From an uncultured Planctomycetales bacterium (GTDB lineage: Bacteria; Omnitrophota; Gorgyraeia; Gygaellales; Profunditerraquicolaceae), in contig CAYRUB010000006.1 of the NCBI GenBank assembly GCA_964427405.1, positions 15,558-79,557 on the forward strand: a stretch of DNA of 64,000 nucleotides, read 5' to 3'. Below, one piece after another: positions 1 through 63,230 of the stretch. Below the pieces are notes generated by a model. The model had not been told where the DNA came from. It searched no databases and saw only the letters and a list, made by a program, of their open reading frames with translations. The stretch's first letter is position 1. The number at the start of each line of letters is the position of its first letter. Both the position numbers and the translations under genes were made by a program.

Positions 1-381
1 ATTCCGGATGTGGATTTTAATAAACTTAAAAATGACCAGAAGGTCACTAATATTCTAGCTAAAATCCAGCATTTGGATTTGAGAGTTTATTCAGCTTTGG
101 ATGATCAGGATTTTAGTTTGGCTTTGGAAGCTATCTGGGAATTGATTGCTATGGCTAATAAGCATGTTGAAGAAATCAAACCCTGGAATCTTGCCAAAGA
201 GAATAAGCAGGAAGAGTTGAAAGAATTTATTCGTTTATTAATTGATGTTATCAGAGCAGTATCCAGAGAGCTGGAGATTTTTATTCCTCAGACTGCCCTA
301 TCGATTCAGGAACAGTTTGGTGAGGACAGAATAAAAAAAGGCAATCCTTTATTTCCTCGTATTGAAACCAATAAGAAGTAA
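1..381 (+). CDS. metG: Methionyl-tRNA synthetase, C-terminal fragment; gene starts upstream of the window
   Basis: ORF open to the window start. The KPWNLAKE-containing tail resembles the MetRS anticodon-binding/C-terminal helical region. Confidence 0.55.
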   Translation: MPDVDFNKLKNDQKVTNILAKIQHLDLRVYSALDDQDFSLALEAIWELIAMANKHVEEIKPWNLAKENKQEELKEFIRLLIDVIRAVSRELEIFIPQTALSIQEQFGEDRIKKGNPLFPRIETNKK

Positions 382-1154: not shown

Positions 1155-2269
1155 ACGCGAAGATTTCCGTAGTTAAGTGTAATAGTTATGAGCCGCATGC
1201 CGTAGAACAGGCAGTCAGGAAGACAGTTGATCTTTTAGGCGGGATAACCTGTTTTGTTAAGCCAGGCTCCCGCGTGTTGGTTAAGCCGAACTTGTTAATG
1301 TCTAAAGAACCCGAATACGCGATTACTACACACCCGCAGGTGGTTCGTTCGGTGATCCGTATTTTGAAGGAGATTAATTGCCGGGTTATTATCGGAGACG
1401 GCCCGAGCGTCTGGGATAGGTATATAGATAATCTGGATGAGGTTTATGAGATTACTGGTATAAAAAAGATTGCGTTTGATGAAGGGGCTAAGCTGGTTAA
1501 ATTTGATAAGCGTAGAATGCGCGATAAGTTCCCGCTTACTACCTGGCTGGATGAATGCGATTATTTGGTTAATCTGCCTAAATTTAAGACTCACGAGCTT
1601 ACTTTAATTACGGGGGCGATTAAAAATCTTTTTGGTTTGGTTTCAGGCACCTATAAAACCGAGTTGCATAAAAATTATTTTAAGCCGTCTGAATTTTCAA
1701 AGATACTTGTGGATATCTATCAGGAGGCAAAGCCCGCATTAACGATTATTGACGGGATATTGGCTATGGAAGGTGACGGTCCGGGGACTAGCGGGAAGAC
1801 CCGTCAACTTAATCTTTTGTTAGGCGGTTCTGATTGTGTGGCATTAGATACGGTTATGGCTAAGATAATGGGGATTAAGCATCAGGAGGTTTTGTCTACC
1901 AGGGAAGCGGCGCTGCGCGGTTTAGGAGAAGGAAAGCTTAGCAGGATTAAAATAGAGGGAGAGGATATTGATAAGTTGAATATCCGTCCGTTCATTATAC
2001 CGCAGGTCTCAAAAATGGAGAATCTGCCGGATGCCTTTAAAATAATCCTTAAGTCGTTAATTAAGTATTATCCTTATTGCCTGTGCCTGAAATGCACGCG
2101 TTGTGGGCATTGTGTGGATATTTGTCCGAAAAAATGTATCACACTTAGTAAGAAGGGTATAGTTTTTAATTATAAAGAATGCATCGCCTGTTTCTGTTGC
2201 CAAGAGGCTTGTCCGTCGGCAGCAATATCAGTAAAGAAAAGTTTGTTGGCCAAGCTTATAGGATTATAA
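1151..2269 (+). CDS. DUF362 domain protein with C-terminal 2x[4Fe-4S] ferredoxin domain
   Basis: DUF362-like N-terminal region. C-terminus carries two CxxCxxCxxxCP motifs (CTRCGHCVDICP, CIACFCCQEACP). Confidence 0.7.
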   Translation: MNAKISVVKCNSYEPHAVEQAVRKTVDLLGGITCFVKPGSRVLVKPNLLMSKEPEYAITTHPQVVRSVIRILKEINCRVIIGDGPSVWDRYIDNLDEVYEITGIKKIAFDEGAKLVKFDKRRMRDKFPLTTWLDECDYLVNLPKFKTHELTLITGAIKNLFGLVSGTYKTELHKNYFKPSEFSKILVDIYQEAKPALTIIDGILAMEGDGPGTSGKTRQLNLLLGGSDCVALDTVMAKIMGIKHQEVLSTREAALRGLGEGKLSRIKIEGEDIDKLNIRPFIIPQVSKMENLPDAFKIILKSLIKYYPYCLCLKCTRCGHCVDICPKKCITLSKKGIVFNYKECIACFCCQEACPSAAISVKKSLLAKLIGL

Positions 2270-16110: not shown

Positions 16111-16517
16111 GGGGGTGAAAGGGTTCGACTTAAGATATGTCGGATAAAAGCAGCATGCCGCGGAGGTAAGGTTAGCCGCGTTAACAACTCCTTACACAAT
16201 TTAAACGCAAACACGCAAGTGTCACGTTTAGGAACATTTGTCACGCCGTCATTTACGGCAAGACCTATGTTCGTACCAGCCTTCGGGCTTAATTAAGTCC
16301 GAAGCCTCTAACCGTCCTGCCTACGGGATGGATTAGGGCCTAAGTAGGCTAGTTCCGGCGGTTAGCCTTTGAAGCCGGGGCGAAATTAAAAAGGCTGCGC
16401 TTTGCAAATCCTGCCCCGCGGGAGTTGCAAAGGTAAGTTTAAAATGCGGGGCTAAGCATGTAGCGGCTTCTATGCGATTACTTAAGGACGGCGGTTCAAT
16501 TCCGCCCACCTCCACCA
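16111..16517 (+). ncRNA. ssrA: tmRNA (SsrA), standard one-piece form
   Basis: 5' GGGGGUGAAAGGGUUCGAC and 3' GGACGGCGGUUCAAUUCCGCCCACCUCCACCA tRNA-like ends; about 407 nt; immediately after smpB. Confidence 0.85.
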
Positions 16518-24728: not shown

Positions 24729-24803
24729 GGTGGCTATAGCTCAATTGGTTAGAGCGCTAGACTGTGGCTCTGGAGGTTGCGGGTTCGATCCCCGTTAGCC
24801 ACC
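24729..24803 (+). tRNA. tRNA-His(GTG) with encoded G-1
   Basis: G-1 plus acceptor GTGGCTA/TAGCCAC, anticodon loop CTGTGGC (anticodon GUG), T-loop GGGTTCGATCCCC, discriminator C. Confidence 0.85.
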
Positions 24804-24847
24804 CATAAACCTTGTATCTCATTGTAGCGCAATGAGTTACAACAACG

Positions 24848-24880
24848 CACCGACGGGGCAACCTGTCGGTGTTTTTTTAT
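24848..24880 (+). terminator. Rho-independent terminator after tRNA-His
   Basis: CACCGACGGGGCAACCTGTCGGTG hairpin followed by T7 run. Confidence 0.6.
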
Positions 24881-24905
24881 CTGGCGATGTCCCTAGGGTT
24901 TAGGG
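24874..24905. repeat. Left copy of ~32-bp direct repeat (TTTTTATCTGGCGATGTCC[C/G]TAGGG[T/C]TTAGG); candidate island boundary
   Basis: Near-identical sequence recurs at 60580-60611. Each copy starts in the T-run of a terminator. Confidence 0.5.
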
Positions 24906-25117
24906 CGTTATTCCCGTCGGAGAATTCTGTAGTATTTTAAAACAAGATCTCCGTCGAGGAAGAGGGGAAATTTTAAAGAAAATTGTTGGAAAATAGCGCA
25001 ATTCCTCTCGTAGTTTATGGGCGCTAGTTTATGCTATATTCGCGTAATAATGCGCTTATTTCTGCTTTGATTTTTGCCATAAACTAGAGGTGAGGAATAA
25101 TCTGGATAAGAGAGGCC

Positions 25118-26728
25118 TTAAGAGGTTATTTGGGTGAGTTTCTGCCACATCGCGTACTGCTTATCCCAGTCGAGCTCGTCGGTGATAGTCCGCAGTTTAT
25201 ACTCCGGGATTTCAAATAGGCATGGATCATTTTGAAGAACGATCGCTTCCTGAATGCGAGGCGAGAGGAAGAGAAAACTCATGATCTGGTTAATGCGCTG
25301 CTGGCTTAAGTTAAGCCATCCCGAAACTTCCTTAATGTCCTTGGTTTTGTTTTTATCGATTAACTCCTGTATCTGATGAGCAAGCAAGAGATTCTGGCGC
25401 AACTGTGGCTCAGATTGTATCAATCGATCCTTGGGCGTTATGGCGTGGTATTTCAGCTCTGCCTTGCTTACATTAAACTTGTGCGATTTCTGCGTACTAT
25501 TAAGAATAATTTCGAGGATTGCTGTCCCGCCGTCATATTTTATTTCTTTCACGATGTCCTTGAGGGCAGTTCTTTTTTGATCAAGAGTATAGGCTTCCCA
25601 TGATTCAGGTTTTAGCCTTTGGTCGTCAGTCAGTTTCCTGAGGTACTCCATAACCTTTGCTTCCATGAGGCCGGCATTTACAAGCCGTGTAGGGCACTCC
25701 TGGTAGCCTCGCTTCTGCGCGTTTAAGCAGACATAATGAAAATAACGCAGCTTGCCGTATTTGATGTTATGGGTAAGATACATTGATGAATTGCAGGCCC
25801 GGCACCGCAATAGCCTGCTTAATAGGCCTATATTCTTGCCGATAGGCTTACGAGTTCCGAATTTTAGAGGGTTTGTATGCAGTGCATCTTGGACTTTCAT
25901 AAAGATTCCATCATCGAGGATTCGCTCATGTTCTCCGGGATAAAGCACATCTTGGTATCTAACTTTACCAGCATAATAGGCGTTTATGAGGATTTTCTCT
26001 ATGCCGGTGCTTGAAAACTTAACGTATCCGCGTTGTTTACCTTCTGCAAGCTTACGGACTTTTGTCCTGTAGCCTTTTGAATTTGCGATTTTAGCGACCT
26101 CTAAAAGCGAACGTTCTTTTAAGTATAGGTCAAAGAGTTCTCGCACAATTTTTGCTTCCTCTGGATTTATGATGAGTTTATGGTTTTCTTTGTCAAGATC
26201 GTAGCCTAAAGGTATGCATCCGCCGACATATTTGCCTTTTTTCCTGGCAGCGCCCATTTTATCTCGGGTCCTTTCACTGATGATTTCGCGTTCAAACTGA
26301 GCGAAGGAGAGGAGTATATTCAAGGTAAGCCTGCCCATCGAGTTTTGTGTATTGAAATGCTGCGTTACAGAAACAAAGGTGACGCTATTCTGGTCAAAAA
26401 ACTCTAATAACTGGCTGAAATCAAGCAGTGAGCGCGACAATCTATCAACTTTATAGACTACAACGCAGTTAATCCTATGGGCTTTAATATCATCAATAAG
26501 CTTCTGTAAGGCAGGTCTGTCAGTATTGGCTCCTGTAAAGCCACCGTCATCGTAGCGATCTGGTAAAATGATCCAGCCTTCAGACTTTTGGCTTTGGATG
26601 TAGCTTTCAGCGGATTCTCGTTGATTATCTAGAGAAGTGAATTCCTGCTCTAACCCTTCTGTTGTAGATACACGCGTATAAATAGCGCATTTAATTGCAG
26701 GTTTTTCTTTATCTGTCTTTTTTTCCAT
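25118..26728 (-). CDS. Large serine recombinase (resolvase/invertase N-terminal domain + recombinase domain + zinc ribbon)
   Basis: N-terminal AIYTRVSTTEGLEQEFTSLDNQRE with catalytic Ser. 536 aa. C-terminal CRAC...CLNAQ...C zinc-ribbon and coiled-coil region typical of phage serine integrases. Confidence 0.9.
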   Translation of the reverse strand: MEKKTDKEKPAIKCAIYTRVSTTEGLEQEFTSLDNQRESAESYIQSQKSEGWIILPDRYDDGGFTGANTDRPALQKLIDDIKAHRINCVVVYKVDRLSRSLLDFSQLLEFFDQNSVTFVSVTQHFNTQNSMGRLTLNILLSFAQFEREIISERTRDKMGAARKKGKYVGGCIPLGYDLDKENHKLIINPEEAKIVRELFDLYLKERSLLEVAKIANSKGYRTKVRKLAEGKQRGYVKFSSTGIEKILINAYYAGKVRYQDVLYPGEHERILDDGIFMKVQDALHTNPLKFGTRKPIGKNIGLLSRLLRCRACNSSMYLTHNIKYGKLRYFHYVCLNAQKRGYQECPTRLVNAGLMEAKVMEYLRKLTDDQRLKPESWEAYTLDQKRTALKDIVKEIKYDGGTAILEIILNSTQKSHKFNVSKAELKYHAITPKDRLIQSEPQLRQNLLLAHQIQELIDKNKTKDIKEVSGWLNLSQQRINQIMSFLFLSPRIQEAIVLQNDPCLFEIPEYKLRTITDELDWDKQYAMWQKLTQITS

Positions 26729-26736
26729 GCCGTTTC

Positions 26737-27210
26737 CTATAGGTTAAAGAATGAGAATCCATTCCAATGCGCGCCTGTGAGCTCAAAAGCAACTGCTGAA
26801 AGGCTGCGGTAATATTTATCCTTATATTCAAAACCTTTATCCAATATTTTTACGTGAACATCCTGGTCTTTGTACTTTTTATAAATAACAGTACCGGGAA
26901 TAGGCAGCCGTTTATCTCGCATAAATGGGATAGAAACGACATTCTTCCCGGCAGAGATTACCTGTGGCCTGAGCGCCTTATTATTAATAGGATCGTATTT
27001 CTCAATAAGGTCGATAATCTGCATTTTGGCTTCATCTGAAAGCCCGCCTTTAGCCGCTTCTTGCAGCTTGTAAGTGATCTTTTTTATAAGATACGGCTTA
27101 TTAGCGCAGGGAGCCTCAGCAACGTTAAAGAGAGCATTGTGTCGCTCCTGGATTTCCGGTAGAGTCGCGTTTTTAAGCGCCTGTATTTCTTCTGAGATAT
27201 TCTCTTCCAT
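26737..27210 (-). CDS. Small protein adjacent to serine recombinase (DUF2924-like; possible recombination directionality/accessory factor)
   Basis: 157 aa, encoded immediately upstream of and co-directional with the recombinase, the position typical of DUF2924 genes. Assignment by context and size; weak sequence recall. Confidence 0.3.
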   Translation of the reverse strand: MEENISEEIQALKNATLPEIQERHNALFNVAEAPCANKPYLIKKITYKLQEAAKGGLSDEAKMQIIDLIEKYDPINNKALRPQVISAGKNVVSIPFMRDKRLPIPGTVIYKKYKDQDVHVKILDKGFEYKDKYYRSLSAVAFELTGAHWNGFSFFNL

Positions 27211-35514: not shown

Positions 35515-35550
35515 GAAACATATCAATTAACCATGACCATGGAGGTGTTT

Positions 35551-36825
35551 ATGGACATCAGAAAGATTAAGATTGAGGCGATTAATCCGGCGCCGTATAA
35601 TCCGCGTAAAGATCTTAAACCGGGAGACCCTGAGTATGAGAGCTTGAAGAAAAGCATACTTACGCATGGTTGTGTGCAGTTGCTTGTTTGGAATATCCGC
35701 ACAGGCAATCTTGCCGGCGGGCATCAGACATTTAAGGTGCAGCTTGAGCTTGGCGTAAAGGAAGTTCAGGTGTGCGTTGTTGATTTGTCTCTTGAGCAAG
35801 AAAAGGCGCTAAATATCGCCCTCAATAAAATTCAGGGAAGTTGGGACAATGAAAAACTCGCAGCGCTTTTAGATGAATTAACGAAAATACCGAATTTTGA
35901 TACAACCGTTACGGGCTTTAATGCCGTAGAGATTGGGCAGATTTTTGACCGCTACCAAGAACCTAAGGACGTGGATGACTATGATTTTCAATCGGCCCTG
36001 GATGATATTGTAGAACCAGTGACAAAAAGAGGCCAGGTAATTACGCTCGGCGAAAGGCATAAAGTTATGTGTGGAGATGCGACGAGTAAAGAGGATCTTA
36101 ATATACTTCTCCAAGGAGAGAAAGTTGCTCTTTTGGACATTGATTGGCCCTATAACGTAAATTATATGGGAGGAAGCTGCCCGCGTTCTGATACTCGTCC
36201 TAAGGGGTCTCGTAAATGGGACGCTATTTATTCAGACAATATGCCGCAAAATGAATATGAAGCATTCATGCTGAAGGTTCTTGTTAATATAAAACCTTAC
36301 TTAAATCCCGGCGCAGCTTTCTATCAGTGGCAAGCACATCGACAGCTTGGTCCGCTTTATCAGATTCTTACTCAACTTGATTTTCATGTTTCCTGCCTTA
36401 TCTGTTGGGCTAAAGAGTCAGCTGCAATATCTTATGCGGACTATAGTTTCCAGACAGAACAGGCGGTTTATGGATTTTTGAAAGGACAAAGTCACTATTT
36501 CGCAGGGAAGCCAGGCGAGTCGAATTTGTGGCAGGTAAATCGTGATTCTACTAAACTTTATTTGCATCCATGCCAGAAGCCAGCAATTTTAGCCGAACGC
36601 GCAATCAAAAATTCATCAAGACGTAATGATATAGTTCTCGATGTTTTTTTAGGATCAGGATCTGTTTTGATTGCTGCAGAAAACCTTGACCGGCGTTGTT
36701 TTGGGATGGAGCTTGATCCGCGCTATTGTGATGCGATTGTTAGGAGATATATTGCTTTCGTAGGCGTAGATAAGGTTTCGGAAGATTTGCGTAAGAAATA
36801 TCACAAGGAGGTTTCCAATGGATGA
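35551..36825 (+). CDS. ParB-like nuclease domain fused to beta-class DNA methyltransferase (phage-type ParB-MTase)
   Basis: N-terminal ParB/Srx-like region (KIKIEAINPAPYNPRK). MTase motif IV (DWPY-like) precedes motif I (VLDVFLGSGS). Start chosen at MDIRKI after GGAGG. Confidence 0.7.
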   Translation: MDIRKIKIEAINPAPYNPRKDLKPGDPEYESLKKSILTHGCVQLLVWNIRTGNLAGGHQTFKVQLELGVKEVQVCVVDLSLEQEKALNIALNKIQGSWDNEKLAALLDELTKIPNFDTTVTGFNAVEIGQIFDRYQEPKDVDDYDFQSALDDIVEPVTKRGQVITLGERHKVMCGDATSKEDLNILLQGEKVALLDIDWPYNVNYMGGSCPRSDTRPKGSRKWDAIYSDNMPQNEYEAFMLKVLVNIKPYLNPGAAFYQWQAHRQLGPLYQILTQLDFHVSCLICWAKESAAISYADYSFQTEQAVYGFLKGQSHYFAGKPGESNLWQVNRDSTKLYLHPCQKPAILAERAIKNSSRRNDIVLDVFLGSGSVLIAAENLDRRCFGMELDPRYCDAIVRRYIAFVGVDKVSEDLRKKYHKEVSNG

Positions 36826-37498
36826 TAGTAAATCAATATATGACGATGAAGAGCCTATTCTTTCTCTTATTCAGCAAATCAAAGATGGTACCTTAAATCC
36901 TAAAACTTTACCTAGGGAAAAAAGACAGTGGTGTGTAGAGTTTCTTTCTAGCGAAGGCTATACAGAGGCGCAGATTGCACAAGTAATAATGAGAGCCGAG
37001 AAAACTGTGTATCGTGATTTGATAGAGATACAGGATCGTAATGCCATGACGCCGGATATTAATTCGGCTAAACGCATTGTAGGAAATATGTTTCAGAAGG
37101 CTATGACACATCATAAGTATCTAATGCGACTTGCGCGCAACCCAGATGCTTCTAATGGAGAAAAAACTCAATCGGAGTTTCTGGCGTGGCGCGTTTTAAA
37201 GGAGGTGGTAGAAAAAATGCAAACATTAGGGTATCTTCCCCTGAAGCCTCAGGAGATTGTAGAAGATATTTTTCATCACGTAACAAATGGGAATGGTGAG
37301 GAAGGAATTACTGAAGCTAAAAATATGATAGGTGAGATTGAGCGCGCAGCAAAAGAAGCCGGAACGCTTGATCTAGAGACCGAAGAGAAGATTAGGGCTA
37401 TAAGGACAAAGATTGAGCAAGTAGAGATTAATCAGGAAATAAATAAACTCAAGAATAAAGAAAATAAACCAAATGACACAAAAGGAGACTCAAAATGA
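36818..37498 (+). CDS. Putative terminase small subunit / DNA-binding protein
   Basis: 226 aa; HTH-like AQIAQVIMRAEKTVYRDL; position immediately upstream of and overlapping terminase large subunit. Confidence 0.35.
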   Translation: MDDSKSIYDDEEPILSLIQQIKDGTLNPKTLPREKRQWCVEFLSSEGYTEAQIAQVIMRAEKTVYRDLIEIQDRNAMTPDINSAKRIVGNMFQKAMTHHKYLMRLARNPDASNGEKTQSEFLAWRVLKEVVEKMQTLGYLPLKPQEIVEDIFHHVTNGNGEEGITEAKNMIGEIERAAKEAGTLDLETEEKIRAIRTKIEQVEINQEINKLKNKENKPNDTKGDSK

Positions 37499-39126
37499 AA
37501 AATAATATCGTAAGTGACCTATCAAGGCTAAGAAGGCAGGAAGGCAGCAAGTCGCTGCTTGCGTTCGCAAAGTTATATATGAAGCATCATTTAGAATGCG
37601 AGCTATCCCCGGCTCATCTTGAAATATACCGTATTCTTGGTACAGCAACTACCGAGAGAGGTAAAAAGATTGCCATCGCCGCACCGCGCGATTTCGGAAA
37701 AAGCACTATGGTTACCTTAATTTACATGGTTTACAGTATTTGTTATTCGAAAGAGAAATTTATTGTGATTATTTCGAATACAGCTTCACAGGCAAACCAG
37801 ATATTAGATAACATCAAAAAGGAGCTAACGGAAAATGAATTGCTAAAGCTGGACTTTCCGGAAGTATTTGAATCAAATGGTAAATTTAAATTGTTGCGCT
37901 GGAGGCAGTCAGATATAATCACCCGCAATAAGGTTTTGGTTTTAGCATTAGGTTCAGGTCAGCAGATACGCGGACGCAGATTCGGAGTCGCCCGCCCGAC
38001 TTTAGTTGTGGCTGATGATTTGGAGGATTCCGAGAATACCTTTGGAAAAGAATCGCGAGATAAGATGCAAGACTGGTATGAAAAGTCGGTTTTAAAGGTA
38101 GGTTCGGAGGATACCAATTATATTTTCATTGGTAACCTTTATCATCCCTATAGTTTACTAAGCGAGTATGTTTGTCCGGATAAGTATCCAACGTGGATTA
38201 AGAGGGTGTATTCCGCCATTGTAGTTTGGCCTAGACGTATGGATCTTTGGGAGGATAAATGGGCTAACATATACAACCATAAGATAGAATTCAATGGGGC
38301 GAGCGGCCCTGTGGTAGCTTATCAATATTATCAAGAGAATCAAATAGCGATGGACGAAGGAACTGAGCTTCTCTGGAATGCGCGATACAGCTTGCACAAG
38401 CTAATGGGAATACGGCAAGAAAATGAGCTTAGTTTTCTCTCTGAATTTCAAAATACGCCAGTTAATCTCAGGGATTGCCTTCTTGACATAGACAATATCG
38501 TATACTGGGATACATCCGAGCGATCCGTTGATGACCTGCTAAAGTCATTAGGTGATAACGTAAGGTTTTATGGCGCATGCGATCCGAGCCTTGGGTTAAG
38601 CACGGTTAAGGGGGATTTTTCGGCTATTATCGTATTGGCAAAAGACGAAGCCTCTAAGACGCTATATATCATAGTAGCCGACATAGAGCGCCGGCCAATT
38701 GAAAAAATAGTTGATGATATTTTAGCTTATTCCCTGAGGTATAAATTTATTAAGTTTGGAATAGAGGGTAATCATTTCCAGCGAGTTCTTGTTGATTTAG
38801 TTAAGGAAAAGGGGGAGAAGGCAGGACTTTATATCCAGCTTGAGACAGTGATCAATAAGGATGACAAGATTGCGAGGATTCAGTCTTTGCGGACGTGTTT
38901 AAAAAGTGGGAACTTACAATTTAGCAAGAAACATAGACAACTTCTGGAGGAGTGCAGATATTTTCCGAAAGGCAAGCACGATGACGGATTGGATGCTTTA
39001 GAGATGGTAGTGAATCTATCTAATGATAATGGGTTTTCGTTCTGGTTTGCCGGCAGCACAAGGCCAAAGCCTTTCAGTGATGACGAAATAGGTCCCTATG
39101 GATACCGCGGATGGGGAAGAAGGTGA
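37495..39126 (+). CDS. Phage terminase large subunit
   Basis: ATPase P-loop IAIAAPRDFGKST, Walker B LVVADDLEDSEN, C-terminal RNase-H-like nuclease (YGACDPSLG...IIVLA...DDGLDALEM). Confidence 0.8.
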   Translation: MKNNIVSDLSRLRRQEGSKSLLAFAKLYMKHHLECELSPAHLEIYRILGTATTERGKKIAIAAPRDFGKSTMVTLIYMVYSICYSKEKFIVIISNTASQANQILDNIKKELTENELLKLDFPEVFESNGKFKLLRWRQSDIITRNKVLVLALGSGQQIRGRRFGVARPTLVVADDLEDSENTFGKESRDKMQDWYEKSVLKVGSEDTNYIFIGNLYHPYSLLSEYVCPDKYPTWIKRVYSAIVVWPRRMDLWEDKWANIYNHKIEFNGASGPVVAYQYYQENQIAMDEGTELLWNARYSLHKLMGIRQENELSFLSEFQNTPVNLRDCLLDIDNIVYWDTSERSVDDLLKSLGDNVRFYGACDPSLGLSTVKGDFSAIIVLAKDEASKTLYIIVADIERRPIEKIVDDILAYSLRYKFIKFGIEGNHFQRVLVDLVKEKGEKAGLYIQLETVINKDDKIARIQSLRTCLKSGNLQFSKKHRQLLEECRYFPKGKHDDGLDALEMVVNLSNDNGFSFWFAGSTRPKPFSDDEIGPYGYRGWGRR

Positions 39127-39325: not shown

Positions 39326-39613
39326 TTATTTGAAATCCAGTAATTTCGAGAGTGGGATATTAAACGCTTTCGCAAGCTTTTGAAGGGTATCTATCTTTGC
39401 GGCAGAAGGGTGTTTACTTTCTAGTAATTGGATGTGCTTGTAATCAATATTAGAAAGCTCCGAAAGCTTCTGTTGTGTATATTTATATTTCTTTCTAAGT
39501 TGCTTCAATCTAGTTGCTAATTTAAGTCTTACTTCATTCTCCATAATTAGAATTATCTCATATCTTTGTTCCCCTTTACACCGTGTGCATACGGTGATAT
39601 AATTAATTTTCAC
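39326..39613 (-). CDS. XRE-family HTH transcriptional regulator (likely true start at internal MENEVRL, ~39541)
   Basis: LKQLRKKYKYTQQKLSELSNIDYKHIQLLE HTH_3 motif. Confidence 0.65.
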   Translation of the reverse strand: MKINYITVCTRCKGEQRYEIILIMENEVRLKLATRLKQLRKKYKYTQQKLSELSNIDYKHIQLLESKHPSAAKIDTLQKLAKAFNIPLSKLLDFK

Positions 39614-40725: not shown

Positions 40726-40983
40726 GTGGTATAGAATACTGTTAAAATAGGAAGCGCCGCGGCTTATAACCGTGGCGCTTTTGTTTAGAGGTTGTTTTCA
40801 GAGAGTCTTTCTGACGTTCCGTATTTCTGGTCACCTTAAGGGAATTACCTCTTGTGACATGTCTTGGGAGCGTTTGTTTGGCGAATACGTAAAAATACCC
40901 ACGGATTATAGGCAAGATTTCAAGCGTAAACCGTCCTTTTTATCCCTTAAGTTTTTATTTACGTGGTATAATATGAAACAAAA

Positions 40984-50245: not shown

Positions 50246-51328
50246 ATGTCAACAGCCATAATATTAGGAGCTGGTTTTTCTAGATGTGCAGGTTTACCAA
50301 TACAGAGTGAATTCTCTAAATTCCTTTTATCTCCAGAACTTTCCCGAACAATTTTAGAGAAAACAATTACAGAGGTTATTAGTGCGTTTATTAGTGATGT
50401 TTTTGGATGGAGACGTGGCAAGCCATTTCCAAGCATGGAAGACTATTTCACTTGTTTAGATTTATCGGCTAACACCGGTCACCACTTAGGAATTCAGTAT
50501 ACTCCTAAAAAATTAAGAGCTATTAGAAGAATGACGATTTATAGAATTTTTCAAATATTGGATTATAACTATCGAAATTCTTCAGAAATAGCGCATTTTT
50601 TAAAGATGGTTTTTAATAAAGGGACTCCAGGGTTTATTGTGCTTAATTGGGATATTGTTTTGGAAAAAGCAATCCATCTTCAACCATTAAGAAATAAAAT
50701 TAACTATGGTTTTGAGTGTTATGAATGGGATACAAAACGTAGGAAAAACTTTGAAGATGACGATATTTTTGTATCAAAGATAAATGGATCTAGCAATTGG
50801 GTGTATTGTGAAAACTGCACAAGCATATTTTATGATCTTAGTACAAAAATCGCTCTTCATAAAATGATGGGTCTTATAAAAGCAGATTTTAGATTATTTA
50901 GAGAAGGATTTACCGATAGACATTTCGATGAAGCGCTGGGGACTTCTCCTCAAAGCCGAAAATGTCATTTTTGCAACAATATGTTAGCAACGCATATTGC
51001 TACCTTTAGTTTTAGAAAATCGTATAGGACATTTGCCTATCCTGCTATTTGGCATAATGCTCAAAGCATATTGTCTAAAAGCAATGAATGGATCTTTGTT
51101 GGTTATTCACTACCAGATGCTGATTTTGAATTTAAACATATATTAAAAGTTTCCGAATTAGCGTTACGGAAAAAAAAGAATCAGCCCCCTCTTAAGATTA
51201 ATGTAGTGGTAAAAAATGATAATGCTGCAAAAAATAGATACCAATCATTTTTTGGTAACCGAATAACCAAAATATGGCAGGGCGGTCTTCAGGAGTTTGT
51301 AAAGAAAAATACAATGAGCAGGAAATAA
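50246..51328 (+). CDS. SIR2-like protein with Zn-ribbon insert, paralog C
   Basis: IILGAGFSRCAGLP N-terminus, NGSSNWVYCENC...CHFC zinc-ribbon, FVGYSLPDADFE C-terminal motif. Same length (360 aa) as paralog B. Confidence 0.6.
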   Translation: MSTAIILGAGFSRCAGLPIQSEFSKFLLSPELSRTILEKTITEVISAFISDVFGWRRGKPFPSMEDYFTCLDLSANTGHHLGIQYTPKKLRAIRRMTIYRIFQILDYNYRNSSEIAHFLKMVFNKGTPGFIVLNWDIVLEKAIHLQPLRNKINYGFECYEWDTKRRKNFEDDDIFVSKINGSSNWVYCENCTSIFYDLSTKIALHKMMGLIKADFRLFREGFTDRHFDEALGTSPQSRKCHFCNNMLATHIATFSFRKSYRTFAYPAIWHNAQSILSKSNEWIFVGYSLPDADFEFKHILKVSELALRKKKNQPPLKINVVVKNDNAAKNRYQSFFGNRITKIWQGGLQEFVKKNTMSRK

Positions 51329-51480
51329 ATACCCTTCCCGTAACATTATTTACCCTGTATACAGAGAGTCTTTCTGCCGCGCCGTATTTCTGGGCGTCCT
51401 TACCGGGGATACCTCTCAAATTTGCCCATAGCTGTTTACAGAGGGGGCTTCCCCTTGTCCAATATTACTGCCCGGCTTAA

Positions 51481-51625
51481 GAAGGAATGCCTAGTGGCAT
51501 AGAAACGCGTTGACAAATCAAATAGTTATGATAAATTAACGTCGTAAGTAGATTAAATCGTCCCGAGTTGTGAAGGGGTAAATCCCGGACGTTAAAAAAA
51601 TAAAACCTTCGTTGGGCTTAATACT
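51481..51625 (+). repeat. Copy 1 of a ~145-bp duplicated promoter/leader module (IR ATGCC-N4-GGCAT, TTGACA-16-TAAATT, terminator-like leader)
   Basis: Near-identical to 52988-53132. Contains an operator-like inverted repeat, a promoter and a GC stem plus T-run just before the gene start. Confidence 0.6.
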
Positions 51626-51654
51626 CGGCGGAGGTTTTTATCTTTTCTAAACAA

Positions 51655-52878
51655 ATGAATATCGGCAATAAATATGAAGATAAATTGGCCGCGTTAGTTG
51701 CTGACCCCTTGCTCATTGATTATGTGCATTTGAGGCCGAAATATAAAAAAGCACTTATTTTGCGCGAATTATGTGATGTTCTTATAGAGTATCAGCCATT
51801 GGCGATCCCTATTCAATTGAAAGTGCAAGGCGTATTAAGGAAAAATTCGGATGATTGGCTAAAAAAAGAGACTGCTAACGCTACAAAACAAATTTTGGGG
51901 GCATTAAGAAGCTTAAATCTTAATCGTGTTGTTATTGAAAATCCTAGGACCGGTATAATTGAATTTCCCCCTAAAACATTAAAGGCAAAACATGGAATAA
52001 TTATTTTGGATTATAAGGGAGATCCTAGTGTTTTGTCGGCAGCTTGTCTTCGTAGAACAAAAGATAAAATACTGCTGCATTATCTAACGTTAGATGATTT
52101 TTCAATACTCTGCCAACATTTAATGACACTACCCGATTTAATGGATTATTTGGATAAAAGGGGAGAGATTCCAGAATGGGCCTTGCCACGTTTGAACGAT
52201 GAGCGCAATGTCTATGCTTACTACCTCACCCATGATAATTATTTCGGTCCTACGGTAAAAATAAACGATTTTGTTGGCGAGTGGGATAGGTTAACTCAAA
52301 AACATGCTAAAGAATATAAAGAAAAGCTTGAGGAGGATAACCAGGCAGAATTATTTAATTTACTTCTCAAACAAATCCACAAAGAAGATCCCGATCAATC
52401 TACTTATTCACCAGATTTTATTCAAAGAGATTCTGAAAGAGAACGTATTTTGAGAAAAGAAGTTACTAGAAAGCTTAGTAGCATAAGACGTCTTTATCGA
52501 AGAGAAATATCAAAGACATTGATAGAAAAATGTCAGAAAGCAAGCACAAGCGAGAAAGGGTTTAACTATTTTTGTTTTATGCCAGAGGGAGATAATACCG
52601 CATATGTCTTTTTGTCTTCTAGACACCCAAGAAAAGAACGCATTACTCAACTTTGTGCAATAGTAAATTGCGTGCTTAATATTCAAGATGTGGATTATGT
52701 CTTGGGTGTAGCTACAGAGAATTTAGGAGTAAAAGGCAGATCAACTGACTTTATAATGATTGACAAAACCATGAAGGATTGCGATCCAAAGGCGATTGAA
52801 GAAAGTAAGCGAATATTTAAAAATATGGAATATCGGCATATATATGATTTTCCTGCAAACAAACAAATTATTATCTAG
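51655..52878 (+). CDS. Hypothetical protein (407 aa)
   Basis: Clean ORF directly downstream of the duplicated leader; no recognisable domain. Confidence 0.35.
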   Translation: MNIGNKYEDKLAALVADPLLIDYVHLRPKYKKALILRELCDVLIEYQPLAIPIQLKVQGVLRKNSDDWLKKETANATKQILGALRSLNLNRVVIENPRTGIIEFPPKTLKAKHGIIILDYKGDPSVLSAACLRRTKDKILLHYLTLDDFSILCQHLMTLPDLMDYLDKRGEIPEWALPRLNDERNVYAYYLTHDNYFGPTVKINDFVGEWDRLTQKHAKEYKEKLEEDNQAELFNLLLKQIHKEDPDQSTYSPDFIQRDSERERILRKEVTRKLSSIRRLYRREISKTLIEKCQKASTSEKGFNYFCFMPEGDNTAYVFLSSRHPRKERITQLCAIVNCVLNIQDVDYVLGVATENLGVKGRSTDFIMIDKTMKDCDPKAIEESKRIFKNMEYRHIYDFPANKQIII

Positions 52879-52987
52879 CATAGGGTTTTAGAAGAAGTGC
52901 CCATCTTTTATGATAAACAAACGAATAGCAAAAGGATTGACCTACGGCATTCCCATAGGGACGCAGTAATATCATTCTTGGGATTGA

Positions 52988-53132
52988 GAAGGAATGCCTA
53001 GTGGCATAGAAACGCGTTGACAAATCAAATAGTTATGATAAATTAACGTCGTAAGTAGATTAAATCGTCCCGAGTTGTGAAGGGGTAAATCCCGGACGTT
53101 AAAAAAGTAAAACCTTCGTTGGCCGTAATGTG
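52988..53132 (+). repeat. Copy 2 of the ~145-bp duplicated promoter/leader module
   Basis: 120 nt essentially identical to 51481-51600, then related terminator-like GC stem + T-run. Confidence 0.6.
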
Positions 53133-53181
53133 GCCGGCGGGGGTTTTTGTTTTTAAGTTGTTTATATAATTTATAAAGAAT

Positions 53182-54426
53182 ATGTCAGATTACAGAAGAA
53201 ATCACTATGTTCCTGATAGATTTCAGCGTCGTTTTTTGCTAAATGACGGGAAAGAGAAGAAGTTTTTCTACCTGGATCTATCTCCTGAAACTGCCTACTC
53301 AAATAAAAGACAGTATGTTCGTAAGTTTTTACATCGATGGGGTCCTCCTAGTTGTTTCTGCGAAGACGATTTGTATACGACTAAGTTTGGCGACTGGGAG
53401 TCAACTGAGATAGAAGAAAGGTTTTTTGGAAAGGTTGATTCTTACGCTCCTTCGGCCATTGAATATTTCGCAAATTTCCAGCATCCTAGTGTTGATGGCA
53501 AGGCGTTTAATAATTTAGTTTCATATATGAGTATACAAAAGTTACGTACGCCTAAGGGGTTAGCTTATTTATCTGAAATATTGCCTAGGTTAGATAAAAA
53601 TCTCATATTGCTTAAGATGCAAGAATTAAGAAATATTTTTTGTGCTTTGTGGACAGAAAGCATATGGAGTATTGTTGATGCTACTAAGGCAGATACAAAG
53701 TTTATTCTTTCTGACCAACCTGTAACGGTATATAACAAGACTTGTTTACCCAATTCGAAGTGGTGTCTTGGTCACCGGGACCCTGACATAGCTCTTTCCG
53801 GTACGCATACATTATTTCCACTAAGCTTAGATAAAGCCCTTATACTTACAAACTTATCTTGGGTACGTAATCCATATGGTCACCCAAGGAAGCCCAGACC
53901 GAATTTTGATCCTTTTAGAGATACAATTTTTAACTTTCTTCACATACAAACAGGTCGATTCCTCACTGATGTAGAGGTAAATGAAATTAATTATGTGATA
54001 AAAACGAGGGCTTACAGGTATATTGCAGCCGCTAAAAAAGAGTGGCTTTATCCAGAGAATAAAATTCCCTCTCAACGTTGGGAAGAGTTAGGGCAGGGAT
54101 ATTTGTTTATGCCAGATCCTCGTTCCGTTACTTTCTCATCAAAAATATTAATCGGTTATGATAATAAAAAAGCAGATGCTTTTGATGAATACGGGAGAAA
54201 ACCCTGGCATCCAGATTATGATAATAAGCCTGAGCGTGATAAAGAATGGGACACATTTCATGCTTTTCAGGGTGAATTTGCACGGGTTTTCGGTCCAAAA
54301 AGGCGCGGTAGGTCTTTTGAGCTAGGAGAATTAAGTAAAGAGGAAGATTCTCCAGATTATCATGCATATCATCTGGGGCTCGAAAAGCATTATAAGCAAA
54401 AGATTACCGGAGAATCCGGTTCTTAA
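53182..54426 (+). CDS. DUF4238-like protein
   Basis: N-terminal RRNHYVPDRFQRRF matches the HYVPQFYLRxF signature of DUF4238. 414 aa. Confidence 0.4.
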   Translation: MSDYRRNHYVPDRFQRRFLLNDGKEKKFFYLDLSPETAYSNKRQYVRKFLHRWGPPSCFCEDDLYTTKFGDWESTEIEERFFGKVDSYAPSAIEYFANFQHPSVDGKAFNNLVSYMSIQKLRTPKGLAYLSEILPRLDKNLILLKMQELRNIFCALWTESIWSIVDATKADTKFILSDQPVTVYNKTCLPNSKWCLGHRDPDIALSGTHTLFPLSLDKALILTNLSWVRNPYGHPRKPRPNFDPFRDTIFNFLHIQTGRFLTDVEVNEINYVIKTRAYRYIAAAKKEWLYPENKIPSQRWEELGQGYLFMPDPRSVTFSSKILIGYDNKKADAFDEYGRKPWHPDYDNKPERDKEWDTFHAFQGEFARVFGPKRRGRSFELGELSKEEDSPDYHAYHLGLEKHYKQKITGESGS

Positions 54427-55967: not shown

Positions 55968-56260
55968 GTCCGGGTCGAGAGAGGCGGACATTCGTATCTC
56001 TTAATGCCTCAAGAAGTTAGATAATTTCTGGTCAGAAAATACCGGACAAATAGGACAAAATTAGCGAGGAATTACCTCTCTAAATCCAGAATATTCTTGA
56101 TATATTGAGGTATTGCGCATATAATTAGGCTAATAAATTCAGAGAGGTTTCTACTCTGCTCATGAGAGTGGGACCCCATATTTTCCTACGCAATAAGCTA
56201 CAAAAAATCCTCGATGGGGTAACTTGTCGAGGATTTTTATCTTGGGGTTGCTAATGATAG
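55968..56260 (+). repeat. Copy 1 of ~250-bp repeat family: IR TGTCCG-N12-CGGACA, tandem CGGACAA direct repeats, TTGATA-17-TATAAT promoter, ~110-nt transcript ending at intrinsic terminator
   Basis: Shared with 60300-60586 and, diverged, 63040-63230. Promoter at 56097-56125; terminator hairpin ATCCTCGAT...GTCGAGGAT + T-run at 56207-56241. Confidence 0.6.
56132..56241 (+). ncRNA. Candidate ~110-nt sRNA/leader transcribed from the repeat-borne consensus promoter
   Basis: Predicted TSS 7 nt after TATAAT; conserved 5' AGAGAGGTTTC...GAGAGTGGGACCCCA; ends at intrinsic terminator. Paralogous unit at 60467-60586. Confidence 0.3.
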
Positions 56261-60299: not shown

Positions 60300-60586
60300 A
60301 AATGTCGTCACTCAAGGGCGGACATTTTGTATTCATTTGTCTCTCTGATAGTTGCGTCATTTCTAGCCAAAAAATACCGGACAAAACGGACAAGTTGGCG
60401 AGGAATAGCCTTCTCTAAAACCAGAATATTCTTGATATATTAAGGTATTACGCATATAATTAGGCTAATAATTTTAGAGAGGTTTCCCTTTGTGGAATAC
60501 GAGAGGGACCCCAGTAATATCATTCTCCTCGCTGTATTGGAGAGTTTAAGGCCTATGATCGCAATAGCGGTTGTAGGCCTTTTTAT
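60300..60586 (+). repeat. Copy 2 of the ~250-bp IR/DR/promoter repeat family, including a predicted ~118-nt transcript (60467-60586) ending at terminator AAGGCCTA...TAGGCC+T-run
   Basis: ATGTCG-N12-GGACAT inverted repeat, CGGACAAAACGGACAAG direct repeats, TTGATA-17-TATAAT promoter at 60432-60460, terminator at 60548-60586. Confidence 0.6.
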
Positions 60587-60611
60587 CTGGCGATGTCCGT
60601 AGGGCTTAGGA
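60580..60611. repeat. Right copy of ~32-bp direct repeat; candidate island boundary
   Basis: TTTTTATCTGGCGATGTCCGTAGGGCTTAGGA versus TTTTTATCTGGCGATGTCCCTAGGGTTTAGGG at 24874. Confidence 0.5.
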
Positions 60612-60790
60612 CATTGTATTTATTAGCCATATATCGAAACCTTCCGCACTACATCAAATTCATCTATATCTGTAAACGGAGAGGTCTTCCACTTGTCGAA
60701 TATTACTGCCCTCCTTACCTGGGATACTTCTTGACAAAAAAAGTGTTTTATTATATTATTAGCATATGCCAATAACTAAAAGGAAACTAT

Positions 60791-61087
60791 ATGACTAGAC
60801 CTTGTAGATGTAGAAGAATAAGATGTAGTCCTGACACGAATTACTTTAAGCCTCGGGGCATCCCTTTGGATATGCTTGAAGAGGTTAATCTTACCCTGGA
60901 TGAATTAGAGGCGGTTAGGCTTGCGGATTTAGAAGGTTTATATCAGGAGGATGGTGCTAGGAAAATGGATATTTCCCGGCAGACATTTGGTAATATCATA
61001 AATTCAGCTCACAGGAAAATAGCGGATGTTCTTTTAAACGCTAAAGCATTAAAGATAGAAGGCGGAAAGGTTAAAAAGGTAGGCTAA
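60791..61087 (+). CDS. DUF134 (UPF0251) family predicted DNA-binding protein
   Basis: CRCRRIRCSPDTNYFKPRGIP N-terminus typical of DUF134. Promoter TTGACA-17-TATTAT upstream. Confidence 0.6.
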   Translation: MTRPCRCRRIRCSPDTNYFKPRGIPLDMLEEVNLTLDELEAVRLADLEGLYQEDGARKMDISRQTFGNIINSAHRKIADVLLNAKALKIEGGKVKKVG

Positions 61088-63070: not shown

Positions 63071-63230
63071 CTTATCAGAGAGTTATAAATTACAAGTCAA
63101 TAATGACCGGACAAGGCGGACATTCCCGCTCTAAATCCACAATATCCTTGATATATTGAGTTATCAAGCCTATAATTACTTGTATAAATAGAGAGGGGTT
63201 TCTCTTTGGTTTATACGAGTGGATTATTAT
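63040..63230 (+). repeat. Copy 3 (diverged) of the IR/DR/promoter repeat family; promoter TTGATA-17-TATAAT at 63148-63176
   Basis: TGTCCG-N14-GACAA inverted repeat, CGGACAAGGCGGACAT direct repeats, consensus promoter, conserved AGAGAGGGGTTTC leader. Confidence 0.5.

Follow-up and report, generated by a model that had tools for sequence, protein, structure and literature searches.

The window, by which we mean the whole 64,000-nucleotide stretch analysed, contains an integrated island with two near-identical sequences in its rightward cargo region, each lying upstream of a gene. The backbone of this island is common to a family and comprises a serine recombinase with DUF2924, variable defence genes, a ParB-methylase, a protein of ∼227 amino acids, TerL and, in the opposite orientation, an XRE gene. 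The divergent arrangement of the XRE gene and the rightward cargo recurs in other islands, and it is in this cargo region that the module described below is located wherever its context is visible. The features of the window are as follows.

25118–27210, minus strand: large serine recombinase and DUF2924, the integration module at the island left end, adjoining tRNA-His (24730–24804)
35533–36825: ParB-methylase, upstream of TerL
36818–37498: 226-aa protein, between the ParB-methylase and TerL
37495–39126, plus strand: TerL (terminase large subunit), island backbone marker
39329–39547, minus strand: XRE-type HTH gene, divergent from the leader-bearing rightward cargo region
51480–51615, plus strand: copy A of the repeated core, with A at 51600
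51487–51500 (copy B: 52994–53007), no strand: inverted repeat ATGCC-TAGT-GGCAT, the proposed operator, within chance expectation and not conserved
51655–52878, plus strand: 407-aa orphan gene, ATG at 51655, 10 nt past the T-rich tail of leader A
52879–52975, plus strand: conserved 3′ flank of the 407-aa gene, common to L002:3783–3880
52987–53122, plus strand: copy B of the repeated core, matching copy A except for G versus A at 51600/53107
53182–54426, plus strand: DUF4238 gene, 414 aa (Pfam DUF4238, E = 3.5e-16), ATG at 53182, downstream of leader B

A repeat search of the window pairs 51461–51622 with 52968–53129, a near-repeat of 162 nt at 93% identity. By direct reading, the 120 nt at 51480–51599 are identical to those at 52987–53106, in agreement with the original prediction of identical 120-nt cores at 51481 and 52988. 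Past this core there is a single A/G mismatch (51600/53107), and the copies, which lie 1507 bp apart, are again identical up to 51615/53122. The direct repeat is confirmed: core pieces of 24–30 nt occur at only two sites in the window, with 0.00 expected by chance, and the repeat is not embedded in a longer duplicated coding segment. A covariance-model search of 24000–64000 with filters off found no third copy, the additional hits being terminator look-alikes of 18–27 bits.

The two downstream genes are unrelated, as had been proposed, with a best BLASTP E value of 13 between them and a Pfam DUF4238 match in the second only. Their earlier description as defence genes holds for the DUF4238 gene, a member of an anti-phage family with experimental support (PMC9122126), and is in keeping with the defence-rich island around it; the 407-aa protein is an orphan. 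It matches no Pfam, PADLOC or PHROG family and has only four relatives among 5.8 billion proteins, and its AlphaFold2 model (five-sequence alignment; pLDDT 53.6) is too poor for a fold search. No cassette precedes its distant homologues (about 40% identity; loci L003, L004 and L006). On its right, the 407-aa module ends within 52879–52975.

The suggested search for the cassette in other genomes, carried out with an exact 20-mer scan and a covariance model, revealed a family of 24 distinct copies, of which 22 are full-length; they are spread over 21 loci, most of these being assigned to metagenome-assembled genomes (MAGs) of Omnitrophota and Planctomycetota. The window itself is probably of Omnitrophota, judging by the names borne by its nearest TerL homologues and by repeats that it has in common with L011. 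The 20-mer AGTTGTGAAGGGGTAAATCC matches 5 genome and 10 metagenome loci, and searching with it skews the sample toward identical cores. The covariance model, R1, identified diverged copies scoring 59–93 bits in L022, L025–L028 and L029–L032, islands that were reached independently, via TerL and DUF4238 homologues. It also detected tandem second copies in L008 and L020, the latter with its own promoter. The plasmid and phage collections gave no blastn match to the cassette, and viral contigs gave none in either the 20-mer or the TerL scan. The repeats are copies of an uncatalogued module, widespread and conserved, that consists of a promoter, a small structured RNA and a terminator. Common to the copies are the promoter architecture (20 of 22), a hairpin of two stems, P1 and P2, a near-invariant internal loop (YGAGUU..GAA), an A-tract and the terminator. 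The core is 100% identical even between islands whose TerL proteins are 55% identical, and the TerL proteins beside identical cores range from only 43 to 55% identity. Within the window, the parts of the two modules are positioned as follows.

51510–51537, plus strand: sigma-70-type promoter, copy A, TTGACA, 16-nt spacer and TG-extended TAAATT
51544–51645, plus strand: predicted leader RNA A, about 100 nt, from the promoter-based start, fold and U-run
51559–51563 with 51587–51591, plus strand: leader A P1, a CGTCC/GGACG stem supported by related sequences
51564–51574, plus strand: leader A internal loop, CGAGTTGTGAA
51575–51577 with 51584–51586, plus strand: leader A P2
51592–51605, plus strand: leader A A-tract
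51602–51638, plus strand: leader A terminator, then U-run
53017–53044, plus strand: sigma-70-type promoter, copy B, TTGACA at 53017, TAAATT ending at 53044, extended −10 TG
53051–53158, plus strand: predicted leader RNA B, covariance-model score 120.5 bits
53066–53070 with 53094–53098, plus strand: leader B P1
53109–53147, plus strand: leader B terminator, then U-run

The TTGACA-16-TAAATT promoter called in the original prediction is present in both copies, with an extended −10 TG in addition. Its hexamers are near consensus, at a spacing within the 16–18 nt of sigma-70 promoters. Across the family, TTGACA is perfect in 17 of 22 copies, and 20 of 22 have the 16-nt spacer together with a TGn-extended −10. 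From the −10 element and a conserved T/A start motif, transcription of leader A is predicted to start at about 51544–51546. Weak AT-rich promoters may also overlap the terminator tail, for example at TATAAT (53163) before the DUF4238 gene.

The leader comprises a short variable 5′ tail, the P1/P2 hairpin with an asymmetric internal loop, an A-tract and the terminator. The internal loop is near-invariant, 5′-YGAGUU(GU)GAA (sequence element GAGUUGUGAA), and the A-tract, UUAAAAAAGUAAAA, is invariant. P1 and P2 are kept in 98–100% of cells of the family alignment with a compensatory change at one pair only, most pairs being invariant. The P1 closing pair is C-G in some copies and A-U in others, and the apical loop differs (GUAAAU, GAA, ACAA or GAAGU) with P2 retained. 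Because P1 and P2 are almost invariant, support from covariation outside the terminator is thin.

Across the family alignment, pairing holds in 97.1% of cells, whereas slid partners give no more than 60.4%, and compensatory changes occur at seven pairs; those in helices 3–5 maintain the terminator stem. This stem is 15–18 bp long in the two window copies. Hairpin energies range from −14 to −25 kcal/mol across the family, with the exception of L002 (−7.7), and the U-run comprises 5–7 U. The G+C-rich hairpin, U-run and compensated stem are those of an intrinsic (Rho-independent) terminator, and the hairpins at 51602–51638 and 53109–53147 account for the GC stem and T-run that had been noted shortly before each ATG. 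Frequent G·U pairs make the terminator specific to the plus strand. We also considered the A-tract as the U-tract of a reverse-strand terminator, which is unlikely given the G·U pairs and the lack of a call in the minus-strand scan.

The P1/P2 hairpin and the terminator are able to form together, and in most copies a truncated leader still folds into P1/P2. The sole antiterminator candidate, UGAAGG with CCUUCG, has an energy of −7.7 kcal/mol compared with −14 to −25 for the terminator, and, with no variation on either side, lies beyond the reach of covariation. The 5′ tail pairs with the invariant loop, or with the 5′ arm of the terminator, no better than shuffled tails do (mean z of −0.30 and −0.13, p = 0.34 and 0.50, respectively). 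Only the L019/L029 lineage stands out in tail pairing. The proposed pairing of AACGTC with GACGTT within the leader was rejected: the AACGTC arm (51538–51543) is not conserved and immediately abuts the −10 element, so that it most likely precedes the transcription start.

Scanned against Rfam 15 at the gathering threshold, the whole window contains tmRNA and tRNAs only. At E ≤ 10, 51300–53300 yields implausible matches far under threshold (MIR5241, 28 bits against 85; STnc240, 21.8 against 55). Apparent resemblances to PyrR-like, preQ1-like and boxA/boxB elements gained no support from the Rfam scan.

The original prediction was that duplication had placed the two genes under the same control. 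This is not borne out, as orthologues of both already carry their own diverged leader. The L002 orthologue of the 407-aa gene has its own diverged copy, and the DUF4238 orthologues in L029, L030 and L032 have the leader directly upstream, with two small ORFs intervening in L031. In addition, the terminator and 3′ flank of copy A match L002, while those of copy B match L029. Because the flanks match different loci and the orthologues have their own copies, the identical 5′ halves derive from homogenisation or recombination in a pre-existing, family-wide leader, and the perfect 5′ identity is a mark of homogenisation, not promoter capture. By sequence comparison, copy A is of mosaic origin, with recombination breakpoints inside the module. 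The core, because it is so conserved, may also provide a homology anchor for the exchange of cargo modules; such an exchange in the window would have left two copies that were homogenised over the 120 nt at the 5′ end.

In all 21 copies followed by an ORF, this ORF shares the strand of the module. It starts 15–45 nt past the U-run in 13 of these and lies 96–254 nt away in 6. The cargo includes a CBASS effector and cyclase, PDC-S39, HEPN, DUF4238, Trypsin_2 (protease), hydrolase and SIMPL genes as well as orphans; these form no coherent regulon and have no single metabolic or transport theme of the kind expected for a riboswitch. RNA–gene pairs nevertheless persist at orthologous loci, namely the 407-aa gene in the window and L002, DUF4238 in the window, L029, L030, L031 and L032, and SIMPL in four loci.

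The arrangement suggests that unrelated cargo genes, most of them anti-phage, are gated in common at the level of RNA. We favour, with about even confidence, a model in which the RNA acts in cis, as a leader with a terminator that gates the cargo gene, making the whole a portable transcription module. Such a module would combine a near-consensus sigma-70 promoter, a leader of ∼100 nt and a strong intrinsic terminator. Most transcripts from the module promoter, and read-through from upstream, would stop at the terminator and give rise to an abundant short RNA, and a cargo gene 15–45 nt beyond, having no recognisable promoter of its own, would be expressed by read-through only. In cis, the module would then serve as both insulator and attenuator, holding potentially toxic cargo at a low level, and read-through could perhaps be raised by a factor that recognises the invariant loop and A-tract. 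In the strongest form of this model, the loop and A-tract would be the sensor of a signal-responsive RNA switch, working by factor- or ligand-dependent antitermination and answering to one trigger for any inserted cargo. We think this form unlikely, and both conditional antitermination and its trigger are speculative. Helper-phage infection or island induction would be possible triggers.

A serious rival, if a doubtful one in our estimation, is that the module is a free-standing small RNA (sRNA) gene carried by the island, with the terminated RNA of ∼100 nt as its functional product. This RNA might work in trans, either through base-pairing or by using the invariant loop and A-tract to bind or titrate a protein, and cargo would gather at a recombination hotspot marked by the RNA gene and be expressed at a basal level through leaky termination. 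The unit is self-contained, with its near-consensus promoter and strong terminator of 5–7 U; it occurs in tandem in L008 and L020; the genes downstream are heterogeneous and at least 96 nt away in 6 of 21 copies; and the loop is so extremely invariant as to suggest a specific partner. The 3′ ends of Hfq-type sRNAs show an A-rich tract and then a U-tail (PMC5558911). The module has a similar 3′ end as well as its own promoter, both of them permissive features only. However, the 5′ tail, the usual seed region of an sRNA, is the most variable part of this RNA, and targets of the invariant loop within the island are not above chance (the best has −22.8 kcal/mol, compared with a mean of −23.3 for shuffled loops; 7 matches to the loop pattern against 4.0 expected). 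At most loci the gap is too short for the downstream gene to have a promoter of its own, and specific RNA–gene pairs are co-inherited, which also argues for the cis-acting model.

We consider it improbable that the module is a DNA-level feature only, a propagated mobile promoter or recombination anchor in which the RNA merely terminates and identity reflects recent horizontal spread. A putative mobile promoter has a published working definition (PMC3488235) of at least 80% identity over 50–100 nt upstream of non-homologous genes of the same genome, and the window pair, with 120 identical nucleotides and unrelated proteins, falls within this definition. The recombination breakpoints inside the module and the bias of exact-20-mer sampling toward identical cores are also consistent with such spread. 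Yet in the copies reached without this bias, by way of neighbouring proteins and the covariance model, variation is confined to the apical loop, tail and upper terminator stem; P1, P2, the internal loop, the A-tract and the lower part of the terminator stem are all retained. This patchy conservation indicates selection on the RNA or on a binding site, not recent transfer, and the divergence of the TerL proteins beside identical cores likewise speaks against it.

The duplicated operator–promoter–attenuator of the original prediction, through which one DNA-binding repressor such as the island XRE protein would control two defence genes by way of ATGCC-N4-GGCAT, is very improbable. Both copies do contain the inverted repeat, in identical form and 9 nt ahead of the −35 element (not 12 nt, as first described), and the XRE gene does belong to the island backbone. 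However, a perfect 5-bp inverted repeat with a 3–6-nt spacer is found in 12% of random 40-nt stretches of the window, and no other member of the family has this one, an insertion breaking it in the closest relative, L012. No other exact copy occurs in the window, even in the vicinity of the XRE gene, whose intergenic region carries a different palindrome, CACCGT-N6-ACGGTG. The leader of each gene also predates the duplication. Least credible is a type III toxin–antitoxin-like system, which shares with ToxIN the order of promoter, structured RNA, terminator and (potentially) toxic gene and for which AvcID is a precedent: the RNA has no ToxIN-like tandem repeats, and the downstream proteins are mutually unrelated, which leaves no way for a single invariant RNA to be the specific antitoxin of each.

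Toxicity is common among anti-phage genes, and to our knowledge little has been established about how islands restrain them, especially in uncultivated phyla. Here, a precisely delimited conserved RNA module of ∼100 nt, absent from Rfam, precedes many defence-type genes in one island family, and is a candidate for a new class of regulatory RNA. It supplies a sequence tag with which further cargo and defence genes, the 407-aa orphan being one, can be found in MAGs assigned to Omnitrophota and Planctomycetota, and a concrete case in which a conserved leader serves to anchor the recombination that shuffles cargo. If the RNA-switch reading were true, it would represent a universal plug-in module for anti-phage control in satellite-like islands of these phyla.

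Like attenuators and riboswitch-type leaders, the module places a structured leader with a conserved core close to the promoter, with a strong terminator immediately next and then the gene, and its lower terminator stem is conserved in sequence, as is seen when a stem joins an alternative pairing. In contrast to these leaders, it has no Rfam 15 match and no demonstrable antiterminator, its downstream genes share no pathway, and each copy comes with a promoter and moves together with mobile cargo.

In the mobile element Tn916, terminator insulators occur together with control by an RNA acting in cis (PMC11658703). As in HK022 put, lambda nut/tR1 and Tn916 T1/canT, a structured RNA encoded by the element lies between promoter and terminators, and premature expression carries a cost for the mobile element. 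In L022, L025, L029, L031 and L032, the module follows the first rightward gene beside a divergent XRE/CI-like gene, a position reminiscent of lambda cro-nutR-tR1. No similarity of sequence or model to put, nut or canT was detected; the Rfam scan matched no curated member of the put, canT and EAR types, to which the likeness is one of layout only. In contrast to these systems, the module RNA lies directly before just one terminator and is preceded by a promoter of its own that looks constitutive, and no N- or Q-like protein was recognised.

We know of no report of a conserved RNA leader at the cargo genes of P2/P4 hotspots. The island resembles these hotspots and PICI cargo (PMC9122126) in holding variable anti-phage cargo, including single-gene DUF4238, at a fixed place in a phage-related element. 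It differs in its backbone of large serine recombinase, ParB-methylase and TerL, in the assignment of its lineages to Omnitrophota and Planctomycetota, and in the conserved RNA leader at the cargo. Finally, the module recalls the putative mobile promoters described in PMC3488235, in that near-identical upstream regions precede non-homologous genes within one genome and are also found between genomes. Unlike those promoters, the module is tied to one island family, both genes had a leader before homogenisation, and the propagated unit is an entire promoter–RNA–terminator module with signs of constraint at the level of RNA.

A repeat search of the window identified a direct repeat of 162 nt with 93% identity (51461–51622 and 52968–53129). 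Read base by base, its two copies, leader A and leader B, are identical across 120 nt (51480–51599 and 52987–53106), differ by a single A/G at 51600/53107 and are again identical to 51615/53122. The original prediction of a cassette with 120-nt identical cores, a promoter and a hairpin with T-run, placed before two unrelated genes, describes these copies accurately. Core pieces have no further occurrence in the window, and an unfiltered covariance-model search of 24000–64000 gives no third copy. The elements, 5′ to 3′, are as follows.

Elements of the two leader copies
51487–51500 (copy A): inverted repeat ATGCC-TAGT-GGCAT, the first element of each copy
51510–51537 (copy A): promoter TTGACA-16 nt-TAAATT with an extended −10 TG, in both copies
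Between promoter and terminator, each copy: about 20 nt, then a hairpin, then an A-rich tract
51602–51638 (A) and 53109–53147 (B): G+C-rich terminator hairpin of 15–18 bp, then a T-run
51655 and 53182: start ATG of the 407-aa gene and of the DUF4238 gene, respectively

The proteins encoded behind the two leaders are unrelated to each other. The 407-aa protein (51655–52878) belongs to no Pfam, PADLOC or PHROG family and is a near-orphan: a collection of 5.8 billion sequences contains only four relatives, and the AlphaFold2 model reaches a pLDDT of 54; its position behind the leader in a defence island makes it a candidate new defence gene. For the DUF4238 family, protection of E. coli against T7 has been shown experimentally (PMC9122126). 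Relatives of the window DUF4238 protein (P0235 and others, 60–88% identity) occur in widely separated lineages, among them MAGs labelled Thermodesulfobacteriota and Methanosarcinaceae (archaea), a distribution that points to this single-gene defence having spread widely by horizontal transfer.

Both leaders lie in an integrated element of ∼31 kb (24730–56000) adjoining tRNA-His, arranged as follows.

Gene order in the island
Left part, minus strand: large serine recombinase and DUF2924
Next: HerA-NurA-like pair, methylases, DUF4917/SIR2
Middle: ParB-methylase, 226-aa protein, terminase large subunit (TerL; phrog_38, E=1e-89)
After TerL: XRE (HTH) gene, divergent
Long rightward defence-type run: caspase-helicase fusion, kinase, HEPN_AbiU2, TPR protein, SIR2-like protein
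After this run: leader A, 407-aa gene, leader B, DUF4238

The large serine recombinase, DUF2924, ParB-methylase, 226-aa protein, TerL and XRE form its backbone. It is dense in defence-type genes: the HerA-NurA-like pair, a DUF4917/AbiH-like gene with SIR2, a 1008-aa fusion of a caspase (Peptidase_C14) and a DEAD helicase, a Ser/Thr kinase, HEPN_AbiU2 and the SIR2-like protein. Many MAG contigs, assigned mostly to Omnitrophota and Planctomycetota, have this backbone too, and TerL homologues bearing a source name are mostly annotated Candidatus Omnitrophica. No capsid or tail genes were seen in this island family, which looks like a satellite-like element.

The leader is one of a widespread family. 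On metagenome contig L002, an orthologue of the 407-aa gene (92% protein identity) lies downstream of a diverged cassette copy. An exact 20-mer from the longest block common to the window and L002 cassettes matched 10 metagenome contigs and five loci in a species-representative genome collection, the latter labelled as MAGs of Omnitrophota and Planctomycetia/Planctomycetales, with one 604-bp contig labelled Patescibacteria; it matched no viral contigs. A covariance model, R1, built from 17 copies, found second, diverged tandem copies in L008 and L020, as well as copies in islands reached independently via homologues of TerL (L022, L025–L028) or DUF4238 (L029–L032). The search of other genomes proposed with the original prediction brings the count to 24 distinct copies at 21 loci; 22 copies are complete enough for tabulation. 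The leader matches no Rfam 15 family, at curated thresholds or at E<=10, nothing similar occurs in plasmid and phage collections, and no description of it was found in the literature.

The tandem units are ∼80 nt apart (L008:1022-1129(-) and 1207-1316(-); L020:1-73(-) and 153-261(-)). The second unit is strongly diverged in both; that of L020 has its own promoter (TTAACA-16-TGnTATAAT), and that of L008 has no obvious one.

Of the 20 other loci, 11 have the island backbone 5′ of the leader RNA; in most of the remainder the upstream sequence is too short to tell. The leader directly follows TerL in L009 and L014, and in L022, L025, L029, L031 and L032 it comes one or two rightward genes past XRE. 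No leader copy was found in the L024 island, whose TerL is 61% identical.

All copies share the same anatomy. TTGACA is perfect in 17 of 22, and a 16-nt spacer with a TGn-extended −10 is present in 20 of 22. A conserved TA(A/G) lies 7–9 nt past the −10 (11 nt in L022) and is consistent with a T(−1)/A(+1) start, which would place the window starts at ∼51544–51546 and ∼53051–53053.

Anatomy of the leader RNA, 5′ to 3′
5′ tail: variable, 7–19 nt
P1: (C/A)GUCC with GGAC(G/U), the closing pair switching from C-G to A-U
Internal loop: asymmetric, 5′-YGAGUU(GU)GAA, almost invariant
P2: GGG with CCY
Apical loop: variable in length and sequence (GUAAAU, GAA, ACAA, GAAGU, GAAU)
Tract after the hairpin: UUAAAAAAGUAAAA, invariant
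Terminator: lower stem CCUUCG with CGRAGG nearly invariant; upper stem and loop freely variable, with compensatory changes

Across the 22 aligned sequences, pairing holds in 97.1% of cells, compared with at most 60.4% with partners slid, and seven pairs carry compensatory changes; none of 500 shuffles reached the observed values. The signal comes mostly from the terminator, as P1 and P2 seldom vary. Because G.U pairs are frequent, the terminator hairpin is specific to the + strand. Islands share an identical core even where the TerL proteins next to it have only 43–55% identity. The exact-match probe biases the first sample of copies; those found without it have the same constrained and free positions.

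This conservation does not extend to the proposed operator. Of random 40-nt stretches drawn from the window, 12% contain an inverted repeat equivalent to ATGCC-N4-GGCAT, with 5-bp arms; the motif is missing from all other family members and has no other exact occurrence in the window, and the palindrome in the intergenic region of the XRE gene itself is a different one. The AACGTC/GACGTT stem, assigned to the leader in the original prediction, lies upstream of the predicted start and is not conserved.

The gene immediately 3′ of the leader RNA is always on the same strand. Besides the 407-aa orphan and DUF4238, these genes encode a SIMPL protein (four loci), a trypsin-like protease, an alpha/beta-hydrolase, an HNH-SAVED effector with its CD-NTase (CBASS), a HEPN protein, a small protein followed by PDC-S39, a DUF2188-like protein and an excisionase-like HTH. 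For 13 of the 21 copies, the ORF begins 15–45 nt past the U-run, often with a Shine-Dalgarno, a gap too short for a separate promoter. At the four SIMPL loci a conserved spacer of ∼110 nt with GCGATTGTTTGTGAAG...CTCGCAAACAACAAT separates terminator and gene (L009:6285-6407, L011, L014:2265-2384, L017:1625-1739) and may be a second regulatory element.

The original prediction held that the promoter had been copied to co-regulate two genes, whereas orthologues of both genes have leaders of their own and copy A is a mosaic. In L002 the 407-aa orthologue is preceded by a leader of its own; close DUF4238 orthologues (79–88% identity) sit in the same island family, where the leader immediately precedes the gene in L029, L030 and L032 and is separated from it by two small ORFs in L031. 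Compared by segment, the upper terminator stem, tail and 5′ UTR of copy A match L002, and those of copy B match L029 and L019. A/B identity is confined to the 5′ part (upstream region, promoter, tail, hairpin and A-tract), where L002 differs. The 407-aa gene also has a 3′ flank common to the window (52879–52975) and L002:3783-3880, shared to ∼52975. We therefore infer that [leader + 407-aa] and [leader + DUF4238] modules became neighbours and that their leader 5′ halves were homogenised; an insertion junction inside the leader would be an equivalent wording. The conserved leader serves as a homology anchor through which cargo is exchanged.

Several other repeats occur in the window. The conserved 407-aa 3′ flank ends in GGGAC.CAGTAATATCATT, and a very similar string lies at 60514–60530, after a D2-type promoter at 60.5 kb. 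A hairpin-containing repeat of 25–38 nt, CAGAGAGTCTTTCTGCCGCGCCGTA(TTTCTGG), is found at 40799, 47605 and 51362 and in L002 (twice), L011, L013, L014 and L019 (twice), always on the gene strand between island cargo modules and often just 5′ of the leader RNA; it may mark the border of a module or serve for processing or recombination. Short interspersed repeats pair 24874–24909 with 60580–60615, directly after terminators (70 nt past tRNA-His and at 60.6 kb), and 51416–51479, just upstream of leader A, with 60654–60717 at 60.65 kb; they may delimit the island or be intergenic repeats found throughout the genome. A second promoter-plus-leader family (56077–56151, 60412–60486 and 63128–63202, each with ∼60 nt upstream and ∼150 nt downstream) has TTGATA-17-TATAAT, a conserved upstream AAAATACCGGACAAA..GGAC and a transcribed part AGAGAGGTTTC...GAGTGGGACCCC followed by a terminator. 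It precedes a KdpD-like histidine kinase (56270), a small gene at 60792 and a gene near 63.2 kb, and has no match in Rfam. The window also encodes a tmRNA (16111–16517, 167 bits) whose ARAGORN-predicted tag, ANTQVSRLGTFVTPSFTARPMFVPAFGLN, is unusually long at 29 residues and does not have the usual ...LAA ending.

The best-supported reading of the leader module, which we hold at about even odds, is a cis-acting insulator and attenuator. The strong promoter would fire, and most transcripts, together with read-through from upstream cargo, would stop at the terminator. Cargo genes, having no recognisable promoter of their own, would be expressed by read-through only, so that potentially toxic products would be kept low and insulated from neighbours. 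Terminator insulators together with cis-acting RNA control are known in mobile elements, as in Tn916 (PMC11658703). The near-invariant internal loop, A-tract and lower terminator stem imply a specific partner, and a factor or signal may raise read-through. The one structural lead is a possible pairing of the loop UGAAGG with CCUUCG of the terminator 5′ arm (−7.7 kcal/mol), both sides being invariant.

The main rival, which we consider rather unlikely, is that the short RNA, an sRNA or protein-binding RNA encoded by the island, is itself the product. This view fits the tandem units, the units' own promoters, the 3′ end with its A-rich stretch and U-tail, and the diversity of the neighbour genes; a search for a trans target within the island gave none above chance. 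The 5′ tail paired with the loop or terminator no better than shuffled tails did. A type III toxin-antitoxin is not supported, the RNA having no tandem repeats and the downstream proteins being heterogeneous. A purely DNA-level mobile promoter (PMC3488235) describes the repeat pattern and leaves the patchy, RNA-like conservation unexplained.

The most novel interpretation, which we regard as improbable and which would be of great interest if borne out, is that one universal RNA gate, responsive to a signal, controls whatever anti-phage cargo is plugged in behind it. Promoter-proximal leaders with an intrinsic terminator, sRNA genes and promoter propagation are all of known kinds. What appears to be new here is the leader family, its tie to TerL and serine-recombinase islands of Omnitrophota- and Planctomycetota-assigned MAGs, and its placement before many unrelated defence-type genes.
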